Source of the DNA: Roseibacillus sp.
Lineage (GTDB): Bacteria > Verrucomicrobiota > Verrucomicrobiia > Verrucomicrobiales > Akkermansiaceae
Assembly (NCBI GenBank): GCA_051251855.1
Contig: JBPOGI010000001.1
Span: 1,568,001 to 1,632,000 of the forward strand
Direction: 5' to 3'
DNA length: 64,000 bases
A model generated the notes under the pieces. The model had not been told where the DNA came from and did not search any database. It saw only the letters and a program-made list of their open reading frames with translations. Within the stretch, counting starts at the first letter, position 1. The number at the start of each line of letters is the position of its first letter. Of the stretch, positions 57,717 to 64,000 are shown piece by piece. The translations under genes were made by a program, and so were the position numbers.

Positions 57717-57808
57717 TGGGAGCGCCGGTTTTCAACCGGCCCCAGCGGTTGATGGCCACTATCCGGAGGAGTCGAACCGACGGAGCCGGTCGAAGACCAG
57801 CGCTCCCA
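57717..57808. repeat. REP-like inverted doublet between convergent genes
   Basis: TGGGAGCGCCGGTTTTCAACCGGC (57717-57740) and GCCGGTCGAAGACCAGCGCTCCCA (57785-57808). Confidence 0.75.
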
Positions 57809-60034: not shown

Positions 60035-60122
60035 GGAGGGGTGGCAGAGTGGTCGAATGCACTGGTCTTGAAAACCAGCGTAGGGAAACCTACCGTGGGT
60101 TCGAATCCCACCCCCTCCGCCA
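60035..60122 (+). tRNA. tRNA-Ser (TGA)
   Basis: GGAGGGG acceptor stem, CTGGT-CTTGAAA-ACCAG, long variable arm, GTTCGAATC, CCA end. Confidence 0.97.
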
Positions 60123-60288
60123 GCTTCCTTTTTTCCCCGCAATCAGGAGCCTCCGATAACGGTTCCCAGTTGCCGTTCTCTTTCCAAGCTCAACAACAGC
60201 ATCCCTCGTCTTTTCGCGGAAAATCACTGTTTCCAAACTGAGAAATCCAGCTTTCATTCCAAGATGGGCTAGTTCACGGAAAACTTTA

Positions 60289-60333
60289 AAGTGGCCATAA
60301 GTCTGTTTTCTGGGCACTTATGGCCACTTATAG
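60289..60333. repeat. Left palindromic boundary element of the ATPase gene
   Basis: AAGTGGCCATAAGT-ctgttttctgggc-ACTTATGGCCACTT-ATAG, ending 3 nt before the ATG. Confidence 0.92.
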
Positions 60334-60336
60334 AAA

Positions 60337-61761
60337 ATGAAACTGACGGGTCGGGAACAGGAAATCAAGAAGCTCAACCTGCTGCTGAAGAGCAAGGAAG
60401 CTGAATTCCTAGCCCTTTATGGACGACGACGGATCGGTAAGACTTTTCTCATTGAGCAACACTTCAAGAAAGAGCTTTGCTTCCAATTGAACGGCCAGAA
60501 GGACGGCACTCTGAAGGAACAGCTCGGAAATTTTCATAGCACGCTCAGTGACCGGAGTCGGAAGAAGCGGAACTGCCCGGGGTCTTGGCAGGAAGCCTTT
60601 CAGCAACTCACCGCCCACCTCAAAACACTGCGGGGAAAGGGCAAGTATGTCGTCTTCCTCGATGAGTTGCCCTGGTTGGCGAGCCCACGTTCGCGCTTCC
60701 TGCAGGCTCTCGATTACTTTTGGAACAGCTTTCTCAGCAAAGACCCGCGCTTCATTCTCGTCATCTGCGGTTCGGCCGCCTCGTGGATGATTGCCAAGGT
60801 CATTGATCACAAAGGCGGTCTTCACAATCGAGTGACCGCTCGCATCAAACTCAATCCCTTCACCCTGGCGGAAAGTGCTCAATTTCTGCGTTCACGCGGG
60901 GTCAAACTCACTCCCTACGATCAGCTCACACTGGCGATGGTGATGGGCGGAGTCCCCCACTATCTCAAGGAAGTCCAAGCCGGCCAATCGGCCGTGCAGG
61001 CTATTGATGCCAGCTGCTTTCATCCTTCCGGCCTTCTCCACGACGAGTTCAATCGCCTCTACACCTCCCTCTTTGATAGCTCGGACCGTCATGTCGAACT
61101 GGTGCGTGAACTGGCGAAGCATCCGCAAGGATTGACCCGCAAGGACCTCACCAGCGCCTACAAGTCAGGCGGGCGACTGACGCACACTCTCACCGAACTC
61201 GAAGAGGCAGGTTTCATCAGCATTCAGAATCCTTTTGAGAAAACCAACCGCGACGCCCTCTACCGCTTGGCCGACGAGTTCTCCCTCTTCTTTCTCAAGT
61301 GGATGGATGGAAAGCGAAGCACTGGGAGCTTTGCCAAAAAATTCAAAACACCTGCTTGGCATGCCTGGAGTGGTTACGCTCTTGAGTCCATCGCCCACAA
61401 GCACATCGCACATATCAAGACCGAGATCGGAATCGCGCAAATCGAGACCGAACATTGTTGCTGGGTTCATCGTGCTAACAAGACTTGGCCGCAAGGAGCA
61501 CAAGTGGATCTCCTCATCGACCGCGCGGATCGCAGCATCAACTTAGTCGAAATCAAATTCTCGCAAGGCCCCTTCACCATCAAGAAGAGCTATGCCGCCG
61601 AGCTCCGTCGCAAAGTGCAGGTCTTCCGCGAAGTGACCGGCACTCCCAAAAACGTCTTCCTGACCTTCCTCACCACCAACGGGCTCACCGAAAACGCGTA
61701 CGCGAGCGAGCTGGTAGACACCGCCATCACCACTGAATCACTCTTCAAGGAAATCCTATAA
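60337..61761 (+). CDS. AAA-type ('archaeal ATPase') protein with winged-helix region and C-terminal PD-(D/E)XK nuclease-like domain
   Basis: Walker A YGRRRIGKT, Walker B VVFLDE, CGSAASWM, GGVPHYL, C-terminal QVDLLIDRAD...LVEIKFS. Confidence 0.85.
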   Translation: MKLTGREQEIKKLNLLLKSKEAEFLALYGRRRIGKTFLIEQHFKKELCFQLNGQKDGTLKEQLGNFHSTLSDRSRKKRNCPGSWQEAFQQLTAHLKTLRGKGKYVVFLDELPWLASPRSRFLQALDYFWNSFLSKDPRFILVICGSAASWMIAKVIDHKGGLHNRVTARIKLNPFTLAESAQFLRSRGVKLTPYDQLTLAMVMGGVPHYLKEVQAGQSAVQAIDASCFHPSGLLHDEFNRLYTSLFDSSDRHVELVRELAKHPQGLTRKDLTSAYKSGGRLTHTLTELEEAGFISIQNPFEKTNRDALYRLADEFSLFFLKWMDGKRSTGSFAKKFKTPAWHAWSGYALESIAHKHIAHIKTEIGIAQIETEHCCWVHRANKTWPQGAQVDLLIDRADRSINLVEIKFSQGPFTIKKSYAAELRRKVQVFREVTGTPKNVFLTFLTTNGLTENAYASELVDTAITTESLFKEIL

Positions 61762-61804
61762 GTGGCCATAAGTCCTCAAAAAACAGACTTATGGCCACTT
61801 ATAG
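61756..61804. repeat. Right palindromic boundary element of the ATPase gene
   Basis: CTATAAGTGGCCATAAGTC-ctcaaaaaaca-GACTTATGGCCACTTATAG, perfect 19-bp arms, containing the TAA stop. Confidence 0.92.
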
Positions 61805-62033
61805 CGAAAACCCTTCTCCGGATTTTTAGGAACAGAGTCCTTCAATCGCCTCAGACTCACCCTGAATTCAGGCTGAAAAAACAAGGATGAGAGAGACCGC
61901 GAAAACAGCGAAATGAGCGAAAAAGAATCAGGCCGAAATTGGACTTCGTTCTTTGAGCAAGTTTCGCCCCTCCCCCGCGCTCCAAACGATTCCTCTCTGT
62001 CTCGTTGTCGTCGGACTTCTTTTCCTCACATCC

Positions 62034-62112
62034 TCCAGACGGAGCGCGGATCTTTAGTCCGCCCCACTGCCATGATGACGGATCGTTGGGGCAGGCTAAA
62101 GACCCGCGTTCC
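62034..62112. repeat. REP-like doublet; first 38 nt repeated at 63586-63623
   Basis: GGAGCGCGGATCTTTAGTCCGCC...GGCAGGCTAAAGACCCGCGTTCC. Confidence 0.75.
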
Positions 62113-62262
62113 ATCAGGTCGACCTAGACTGTAGCCATAGTGGTAAGGCATGAGCCTCAAGATTTGGTCTCGAGCGCTTTCATCTCTTCCAAACTGATCC
62201 GGCGATCACTCACCTTCTTTTTCGTAAATCTTCTAGGAGTACCATCAGGGCGATGACTTACG

Positions 62263-63441
62263 CTATTCCTCTTCTTGGATGGTCGCCAAGACCTCAGAAA
62301 TACGACTCTCAGGCACGTCCCATTCTCGGAGGGCGCTGGCCACCATTCCGGGTTGAGAAAACCCGCGAAGAGCACTCAACTCTTCGATTCTCGCTTCGTT
62401 GTCCGGGAGGTCGTTGAGTAATTCTTGAGACATCATAAAACCTGTTGGGGGCCGGCTAGAGAGGGCTGCGAGGCGGAGCTGTCGTGCGGGTTCCTCTTCC
62501 ATCAGGGGAAGAATCTTCCGTGTCCTAGGGCTGTTGTTCACGAAGTCGGAATTCTCGACAAGCTTATCGAATTGGTTACGAGAGAGTGCTGATAGACGCT
62601 CTGCCATTACGGTATGGCTTTCGATGCTACCAATTTTCTTTTCAAGACCGTAAAGAGCCATCGAGAAGCTCACTCTTTTTCCGTCCAAAGAACGGTCAAG
62701 GGCATAGTCGATAGCAGCATCAGGATCTCTTTCAACCCATTCTTTGAGCGGAGAAGTGGAGATTGCGGCTCTCGGCACTTCATCTCTCATGCCATCGAGA
62801 AGTCGCTCAAAATCGAAGTCTTCGGGGTAATCCATCCCCACCCCTTGACCCTGATTGGTATCATTTTTTGGAAGGCGTTTCATGGTGGCTAGTAAAGCTT
62901 CCGCTCCTTCCGCAGCCGATTGAAGGAAGGCCTTTCGAACCGTTCCGGCGAGTGGGCTAATGAAGGCTCCCACAGAATGCTTTTCGCATTCACAATAGAG
63001 CTCAAAGGCGAGCTCGGGTTCGCTGCGAGCGAGAACCGAGGCCACGGAGCACAAGGCCACTTCTTGCTTCTTGCCTTTCTGGCTGCGGACCCAGGCAATA
63101 CAGCCCTCTTGGTCTCTTTTGAGCCACTCTCCGAAAAGCCGTTGCAGAAGACGGACATCATCACGCCCCATCCCACCCCACATTCCGCCCATCGCTTCGT
63201 TCACAAGAAACGGAAGTTCATCGTCGTCCGCCTCTTTTGCGACCGAGGGGCCTTCACTCTCCAAACGGCTGATGAGCTGGGTCAGCCTACTGGCGGACTT
63301 GGCTTCGCTCGTATTGGATTTCATTCCCTGCGCACTCTTGGTGGGAGCGGCCTTCACGAGGGGAGTTTTCTCAGGTTTAACGAGCCAGCCAAGAGTGAAA
63401 CCAATGAGCAAAGTTCCAAAAGCAATCACACTAGTCTTCAT
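62263..63441 (-). CDS. Hypothetical membrane-anchored alpha-helical protein
   Basis: N-terminal hydrophobic anchor; repeated W-x-x-RD motifs (WLKRDQEG, WVERDPDAA). Confidence 0.75.
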   Translation of the reverse strand: MKTSVIAFGTLLIGFTLGWLVKPEKTPLVKAAPTKSAQGMKSNTSEAKSASRLTQLISRLESEGPSVAKEADDDELPFLVNEAMGGMWGGMGRDDVRLLQRLFGEWLKRDQEGCIAWVRSQKGKKQEVALCSVASVLARSEPELAFELYCECEKHSVGAFISPLAGTVRKAFLQSAAEGAEALLATMKRLPKNDTNQGQGVGMDYPEDFDFERLLDGMRDEVPRAAISTSPLKEWVERDPDAAIDYALDRSLDGKRVSFSMALYGLEKKIGSIESHTVMAERLSALSRNQFDKLVENSDFVNNSPRTRKILPLMEEEPARQLRLAALSSRPPTGFMMSQELLNDLPDNEARIEELSALRGFSQPGMVASALREWDVPESRISEVLATIQEEE

Positions 63442-63585
63442 TCCTTCTAGAGCGTTCTCTAGTGGCCTTTTTTTGTCGATATCTCTTTTAGAGAGAAAAT
63501 TCTTTTGACCAGAACCCTAACCCTTACCCTTACCTCCGCCTGCTGGACTGGAGACTCCGCTTGGCAAGCCACCGGGAAAGGATAG

Positions 63586-63623
63586 TCCAGACGGAGCGCG
63601 GTTCTTCAGTCCGCCCCACTGCC
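63586..63623. repeat. REP-like unit, direct repeat of 62034-62071
   Basis: TCCAGACGGAGCGCGGTTCTTCAGTCCGCCCCACTGCC, 36/38 identical. Confidence 0.8.
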
Positions 63624-63665
63624 TCATGACAGGAGCAATGGAGGCAGCCCTCGCATCTAAAAATT

Positions 63666-63998
63666 TTAGCAACACGCACGCATCATGGGGCAATCTTTGC
63701 TCCCTTGCTGGCCTGAGCTGCGATAATTCTGCAATAAGCGTCGAGACTCTTTGGCCAGCATGCGGCGCACCTCGCGGCGGGCTCCTTTTTCGCGAGGGAT
63801 GGTCATGTGATCATAAGCGGTCGTTTGATGGCGCATCCAGGCGATCACTGCCGATTCGGCGCGCTGCTCGATGGGGATTCGCTGCGTGCGAGCCACGGTG
63901 CCACTCCCGACCGGAACGGCGTGCTCGGCCACCGCTTTTGCCATCTTGTTTGCCAGCTCCAGATGTTCCTGATGGAAAGCGAGAAACTGAAACACCGC
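63666..63998 (-). CDS. DUF2293-like protein, 3' part (5' end beyond the window)
   Basis: HAVPVGSGTVART, AVIAWMRHQTTAYD, RREVR. Confidence 0.75.
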   Translation of the reverse strand, partial: AVFQFLAFHQEHLELANKMAKAVAEHAVPVGSGTVARTQRIPIEQRAESAVIAWMRHQTTAYDHMTIPREKGARREVRRMLAKESRRLLQNYRSSGQQGSKDCPMMRACC

Positions 63999-64000
63999 CT

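Follow-up and report, generated by a model that had tools for sequence, protein, structure and literature searches.

A single ATPase-nuclease gene that is framed by two palindromic repeats beside a tRNA-Ser gene raises the question of what the repeats are for. They may be the ends of a mobile unit, the targets of a recombinase or the binding sites of the protein encoded between them. We addressed this question for a locus in a 64,000-nucleotide stretch of a Roseibacillus sp. genome (GCA_051251855.1, contig JBPOGI010000001.1, positions 1,568,001 to 1,632,000), hereafter the window. An earlier note, made from the sequence, had offered three answers: (a) a cassette inverted or mobilised by a recombinase in trans, (b) a minimal selfish element whose own protein recognises its ends and (c) paired operators for autorepression by DNA looping. 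The features of the locus, in coordinates of the window, are as follows.

60035..60122, plus strand: tRNA-Ser(TGA), at the left edge of a lineage-specific insert.
60123..64000, no strand assigned: start of the insert, ~7.85 kb of mixed cargo, which extends past the window end.
60216..60285, plus strand: ~70 bp that lie outside the left site and recur in L001, the 89% sister locus (0/2000 shuffles).
60286..60332, no strand assigned: upstream 47-bp site with half-sites 60286-60302 and 60316-60332.
60337..61761, plus strand: gene for the 474-aa PDC-S27/ATPase_2 protein (PADLOC, Pfam, AF2 model).
60337..61071, plus strand: AAA+/STAND-like ATPase with Walker A (GRRRxGKT), Walker B (DE) and fold matches.
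61084..61269, plus strand: winged helix, residues ~250-311, from secondary structure; S277, R280 and R305 covary with the site.
61351..61746, plus strand: PD-(D/E)XK-type nuclease domain with conserved E350, D391, E405 and K407 and fold matches.
61757..61803, no strand assigned: downstream 47-bp site with half-sites 61757-61773 and 61787-61803.

Its sequence makes the gene an ordinary PDC-S27 member. It matches the PADLOC PDC-S27 model PDLC04984 from position 3 to 473 of 474 (595.6 bits, E 1.8e-179) and, over cut-off, Pfam ATPase_2 (PF01637, E 3.8e-15). The AF2 model of the 474-aa protein has a pLDDT of 92. In fold comparisons of this model, residues 1-326 align with the archaeal ATPases 2qen (Z 20.1) and 2fna (Z 19.7) and also match Orc1/Cdc6 2qby (Z 14.2), and the model predicts a winged helix built from helices at 250-290 and strands at 294-311. 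The C-terminal 148 residues resemble 1y88 (Z 9.0), 2vld (Z 8.9) and FokI (Z 7.5). Across 71 proteins, Walker A and Walker B are 99-100% conserved, as are the nuclease motif residues (D391 1.00, E405 0.99, K407 0.99), and sequence conservation and predicted fold place a PD-(D/E)XK domain with an intact motif at the C-terminus. DUF234, classed as PD-(D/E)XK in PMC3424549, is matched in 32 of 52 homolog C-termini, while the window's own C-terminal piece is unmatched. PDC-S27 ranks among the commonest defence candidates, with a putative anti-phage role. In PMC12988326, S27 is presented as an ATPase-PD-(D/E)XK candidate that is abundant, detected 3503 times in archaea and 4562 times in bacteria, and validation is given as pending for most PDCs; the main text of the PDC preprint does not mention S27. 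In the locus contexts that we compared, R-M and TA genes are among the gene's neighbours.

The two repeats are paired beyond chance. The reverse complement of 60289-60333 is identical to 61756-61800 at 42/45 positions with all three mismatches in the spacer, and the palindrome arms measure 14 bp in the left and 19 bp in the right site, just as the earlier note had described. Its statement that the right site supplies the stop codon also holds, as the TAA at 61759-61761 lies inside the downstream half-site 61757-61773. At the other end, 4 nt separate the upstream site, which has a T-rich 13-bp spacer, from the ATG. A search of the 4.96-Mb genome for further copies of the 14-mer arm returned four at 0 or 1 mismatch, all within the two sites, so that a dispersed repeat can be rejected. 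The ATPase-nuclease gene is single-copy in this genome, and no Rfam family matched at the two sites. Elsewhere in the window, a 34-bp inverted repeat (82%) lies between two convergent genes at 57717-57808, and a 38-bp REP-like repeat with four genomic copies at <=5 mismatches flanks a 392-aa orphan gene (62034-62071 and 63586-63623).

Homologs redefine the repeated unit as a 47-bp site of two 17-bp half-sites with 13 bp between them. The half-site consensus across homologs is the 17-bp TATA-N4-GCCA-AAWST, arranged in inverted pairs 13-14 bp apart. Using a site finder that ignores the protein, and skipping 12 redundant loci, we found sites at fixed offsets upstream in 15/16 and downstream in 16/17 homologs of 60-100% identity. 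The corresponding counts were 33/46 and 8/49 at 41-60% identity, 8/23 and 0/23 at 34-41%, and 2/14 and 0/13 below 34%, with 3/495 in shuffles and 0/85 in far-upstream flanks. The expectation that homologs carry palindromes at both ends is thus confirmed for the closer relatives and fails downstream in most others. Conservation is 0.95 for the downstream and 0.94 for the upstream site, including loci without hsdM behind the gene, as here. The clade pattern occurs in 3/401 genomes, always at the gene. Six of the seven sites that match the family pattern in 301 Bacteroidota genomes lie at the gene, so this pattern is no widespread regulon motif of the hosts. One genome of 3.2 Mb (G436) contains 21 dispersed paralogs (L200, L204, L205, L207, L209-L225), no pair of which exceeds 61% identity; as judged by eye, each has its own upstream inverted repeats, with many different cores. 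In one further Bacteroidota locus (L393, G589:C108), about five half-sites are arrayed with no gene match beside them, and this array is possibly a remnant after gene loss.

Palindromes of this kind could also act as RNA, with a translation-control stem upstream and a terminator-like stem downstream. Both fold strongly (z -5.6 and -11.4), as any palindrome does. However, their spacing is fixed and the inner pentamers vary independently, often being unable to pair. Site mismatches have no G-U bias (upstream GT 12 vs AC 12, downstream 6 vs 13), and this favours a DNA site over an RNA stem. Considering also that the site covaries with a DNA-binding fold, as described below, we regard RNA hairpins as highly improbable.

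Covariation points to the encoded protein as the reader of the sites. From 100 candidate loci, 75 had a site and 71 gave usable proteins, two of which were misframed and dropped, leaving 69 loci; covariation was scored by leave-one-out and parsimony tests using sets of 29 and 39 representatives. Three residues of the winged helix vary together with the site: 277 with positions 11-12, 280 with position 8 and 305 with position 13. All three are located in the wing or where the recognition helix begins. Residue 277 predicts base 11 correctly in 27/29 representatives, compared with a baseline of 16, with 20 for the next of 458 columns and with a shuffled maximum of 22, and it predicts base 12 equally well. 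Residue 305 predicts base 13 in 38/39 (baseline 32, next column 36) and scarcely stands out in the 29-set, where it scores 28 and the next column 27. For base 8, residue 280 comes top both in the 39-set, with 25 vs 12, and in the parsimony test over 391 columns; in the 29-set it is outside the top four, and L230-L233 and L239 are exceptions. Across the 69 loci, S/T277 is paired with C in 52/53 cases and D277 with G in 8/8, and R305 is paired with T or C in 8/8 and any other residue at 305 with A in 60/61. Since three winged-helix residues track site bases, the sites are most likely read by the protein whose gene they flank, and direct binding of the winged helix to the sites of its own gene is very probable. 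The co-variation of palindrome and winged helix that the earlier note had proposed to look for is therefore present. The same residues bear on the hexamer ATAAGT repeated at 10-bp spacing, which does occur here as the note had said and is peculiar to this variant, most of the clade having AAATCT/AAAAGT there. The window, L001 and L002 combine R305 with T or C at base 13, the remaining clade K with A; as R305 goes with T or C at this base, the hexamer repeat is a local variant.

A match between site and cargo protein is not what option (a) predicts, in which the locus is an invertible or excisable cassette for a host tyrosine recombinase of the loxP or dif kind. The arm-spacer-arm shape and the inverted orientation at this locus resemble such a cassette, and six tyrosine-recombinase matches over cut-off are found elsewhere in the genome. 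The nearest on the contig is ~318 kb away, which agrees with the note's observation that no recombinase is adjacent. Yet the site follows the winged-helix residues of the cargo protein and not the host, and the 21 paralogs of one genome have upstream repeats of their own with differing cores. Within the 14-locus clade, the two spacers (13-14 bp) are never identical, their best identity ranging from 0.36 to 0.85, and orientation is mixed, the inverted fit being better in eight loci and the direct fit in six. At this locus, one contig of depth 4163 covers both sites, and the contigs of the likely source run contain no inversion joint, although contigs lose rare forms. A contig joint from 3087 to 1789 (depth 2.5) was considered as a possible circle and rejected, as a relative's own site explains it and the joint falls 174 bp before the end of the gene. 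We conclude that a recombinase cassette is extremely improbable.

The gene itself is patchily distributed, occurring in 1/8 same-genus genomes and 19/401 in the phylum, and its contexts are unrelated. In 5/8 same-genus genomes, the gene carrier included, the next gene after the tRNA-Ser is the one that at our locus follows only after ~7.85 kb, while the remaining 3/8 are uninformative on this junction; the presence/absence variation named in the note is thus seen among relatives. The insert behind the tRNA-Ser reaches ~67975 (locus L196) and was found to contain no integrase, its cargo comprising the orphan 392-aa gene, DUF2293, a PIN-domain pair, an M3 peptidase and an APH kinase. A tRNA-targeting integrative element was considered and rejected, as no integrase is linked, the tRNA 3' end is not duplicated at the insert's far side and a tRNA lies in the flanks of 0/41 homolog loci. 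The association with a tRNA gene emphasised earlier thus does not recur in these homologs. Neither is the unit exactly one ORF, as had been claimed, since homology with the 89% sister L001, in this one pair, continues ~70 bp beyond the left site (0/2000 shuffles). This segment is possibly a promoter region travelling with the gene; no sigma-70 consensus promoter was found at this locus.

Patchiness in unrelated contexts is what one would see if the sites delimited a minimal element that mobilises itself, with the protein binding both ends and the nuclease excising the element or priming insertion, as in option (b). The 21 paralogs in one genome are consistent with this, as is the finding that the two spacers of an element resemble each other more than they resemble those of other elements (P 0.0016). 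In three Bacteroidota loci (L016, L201, L236), moreover, the outermost upstream site is copied downstream in direct orientation at 92-100%. Near-exact direct downstream copies, seen in L016/L203, L201, L236, L142 and L007, would permit loop-out or amplification by recombination. Against self-mobilisation, homology passes the left site by 70 bp, all paralog pairs are at or below 61% identity and the downstream site is absent from most homologs. No short target duplication was apparent by eye in the 14-bp flanks, the 401 class genomes contain no solo site, and no transposase family appeared among Pfam, NCBIfam and fold matches, a new chemistry remaining conceivable.

Duplications around hsdM bear on the same question. 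In five clade loci (L001, L003, L005, L078, L080), hsdM starts at most ~25 bp past the downstream site, and in four of these five a decayed hsdM 5' copy lies upstream; the direct duplications at hsdM in sister loci span 80-350 bp. As a signature of the element these were rejected, since in G982 an hsdM duplication frames unrelated cargo without sites. The 5' end of one type I hsdM family is repeatedly duplicated in the five loci and in L266, framing cargo as varied as this ATPase, a RES-Xre pair and a 343-aa gene, and the duplications resemble a cassette array made by homologous recombination. Taken as a whole, option (b) retains a protein that likely reads the sites and a mobile gene, and it loses the sites as exact boundaries, so that we consider self-mobilisation quite unlikely. 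Horizontal transfer and host recombination likely carry the gene into variable regions, and the palindromes are probably not its cut points.

Paired operators, option (c), fit best, in a form with four half-sites in total that are clustered or split. Exactly four half-sites are present in 43/69 loci, either as 4+0 upstream (23) or as a 2+2 split (20), compared with 0/69 in the far control, with overlaps filtered beforehand; six loci carry only two. The 2+2 layout comes from one clade in 14/20 cases, and the trade-off between upstream and downstream half-sites is significant overall, with P 0.07 outside that one clade. From these totals we infer a complex that would require four half-sites, built side by side or across the gene. 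Because the upstream site abuts the gene start, the protein likely represses its own gene. The downstream pair may complete the four-site complex by looping or act as a second dock, a proposal for which we see even chances.

The family pattern was also found in viral sequences, occurring in at least 120 IMG/VR stretches, compared with none for the reversed pattern, two for gaps of 14-17 and none for gaps of 22-25. Among the matches listed, the gene is absent near the site in 119/120 (of the 120, 80 have long and 40 short flanks), and 9/9 whole phage records lack it, four of them being at least 90% complete. One phage, 95% complete and without ATPase_2 (L258), carries this clade's site plus a third half-site. 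The R305-type site variant has seven IMG/VR matches, none with the gene, and the GCGG-type site has none in IMG/VR. At the phage loci (L267-L386, L395-L401, L258), the gene-less sites are intergenic and often combine two arms of different specificity. The matches listed represent 36 contexts, are intergenic in 28/31 assessable cases and have 65 neighbours, 31 of which match PHROGs, mostly replication, recombination and nucleotide genes but also terminase and baseplate. Positions 15-17, which are absent from the search pattern, match the host consensus at 5.0/6 in phages and hosts alike (expected 2.65). The specificity block is less symmetric in phages (1.9/4) than in hosts (3.4/4, P 8e-8, the contexts being partly dependent). 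Short palindromes are more frequent near phage sites (0.69) than in shuffled (0.05) or far sequence (0.29), and other phage modules matched distant host repeats in only 1/36 contexts. In one cluster of 39 phage contigs the site is shuffled among other ~45-bp modules, some of them palindromic, and in another it is surrounded by phage tRNA genes. The search for cultured phages with the site returned none, and a match in Lak-B1 was rejected as an AT-rich chance match. We found no paper on these sites or their phage copies in a search of mainly open-access literature. The gene-less phage-borne copies are a new observation here.

These copies weigh on two further explanations. In the simpler one, the upstream site would be nothing more than an operator for autoregulation, the downstream copy would have arisen as a by-product of duplication or would control the next gene, and the phage copies would be neutral remnants. 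The upstream site is indeed the widespread feature, hsdM closely follows the downstream site in the five clade loci named above, and L393 provides one gene-less array in a bacterial genome. However, the downstream site is equally conserved, even without hsdM behind it as here, and among the matches listed the phage copies keep the invariant positions and the spacing in 36 unrelated contexts, which makes a plain operator unlikely. The other explanation reverses the direction: the motif was originally a phage origin or promoter for a phage protein, the host nuclease came to target it, and the asymmetry of phage copies reflects escape. Their intergenic position amid replication and recombination genes is compatible with this, and phage copies vary exactly in the specificity block. 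Host cores, on the other hand, change in step with the host protein and some are absent from phages, the host retains perfect sites next to its gene, and the phage flanks yielded no related winged helix. A phage origin of the motif is very unlikely on this evidence.

The explanation that we favour, with somewhat better than even confidence, is that the ATPase-winged-helix-nuclease would dock on four cognate half-sites at its own gene. The bound protein would limit expression of that gene, docking would keep the nuclease parked, and gene-less site copies in phages would serve as decoys. That released or excess protein acts against phages, which counter it with such decoys, is a possibility to which we give slightly less than even chances. 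More tentative still is a full model in which PDC-S27 would be a one-gene defence nuclease with DNA in the role of the antitoxin. Here, four cognate half-sites would keep a tetramer inactive and set its dose, infection would remove or overload the docks and thereby free the nuclease, and phages would answer with intergenic decoys whose two arms differ in specificity. The three-residue winged-helix code might then let specificity diversify in an arms race. The locus supplies a concrete candidate DNA substrate and a residue-to-base code for PDC-S27, and it is a reason for cloning the gene together with both sites. The orphan sites in phages are independent sequence-level evidence of phage interaction with the PDC-S27 family. 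If the decoy reading is true, they form a DNA-decoy class of anti-defence, and they would point to anti-defence in non-coding DNA that is overlooked by protein-centred searches.

Among known systems, the locus is closest in gene content to PDC-S27/COG1672 (ATPase_2 plus DUF234), as seen in the full-model match and in the ATPase-PD-(D/E)XK fusion described in PMC12988326 and PMC3424549. The AAA+ plus winged-helix fold is shared with archaeal Orc1/Cdc6 proteins (Z 14.2 to the origin-bound 2qby). Their ORB repeats are cognate sites that lie next to the gene, inverted on either side of an AT-rich spacer, a layout that is alike here, whereas the protein of this locus adds a nuclease domain, is patchily distributed and has sites at both gene ends. 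The operators of toxin-antitoxin and R-M controllers are likewise paired palindromes at the gene start that are bound by the encoded protein. Here, in contrast, there is one gene without an antitoxin partner, a second site behind it and orphan copies in phages. Tyrosine-recombinase target pairs such as loxP and dif have identical spacers of 6-8 bp, unlike the 13-14 bp spacers of 0.36-0.85 identity seen here, where the site covaries with the cargo protein. The hsdM direct duplications in sister loci resemble the insertion with long target duplication described in PMC2853133. A transposase-less nuclease gene within imperfect inverted repeats is a layout shared with a known nuclease insertion system. 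In our case, each end is a palindrome in its own right and corresponds to the protein, we saw no 8-bp target duplication, and the long duplication is a feature of the hsdM hotspot. Finally, phages are known to mimic host defence signals, as with Chi sites and the solitary repeats of RNA anti-CRISPRs. The copies described here would similarly be a host defence recognition sequence carried by a phage without the gene, but they differ in providing a putative double-stranded DNA dock for a sequence-specific ATPase-nuclease.
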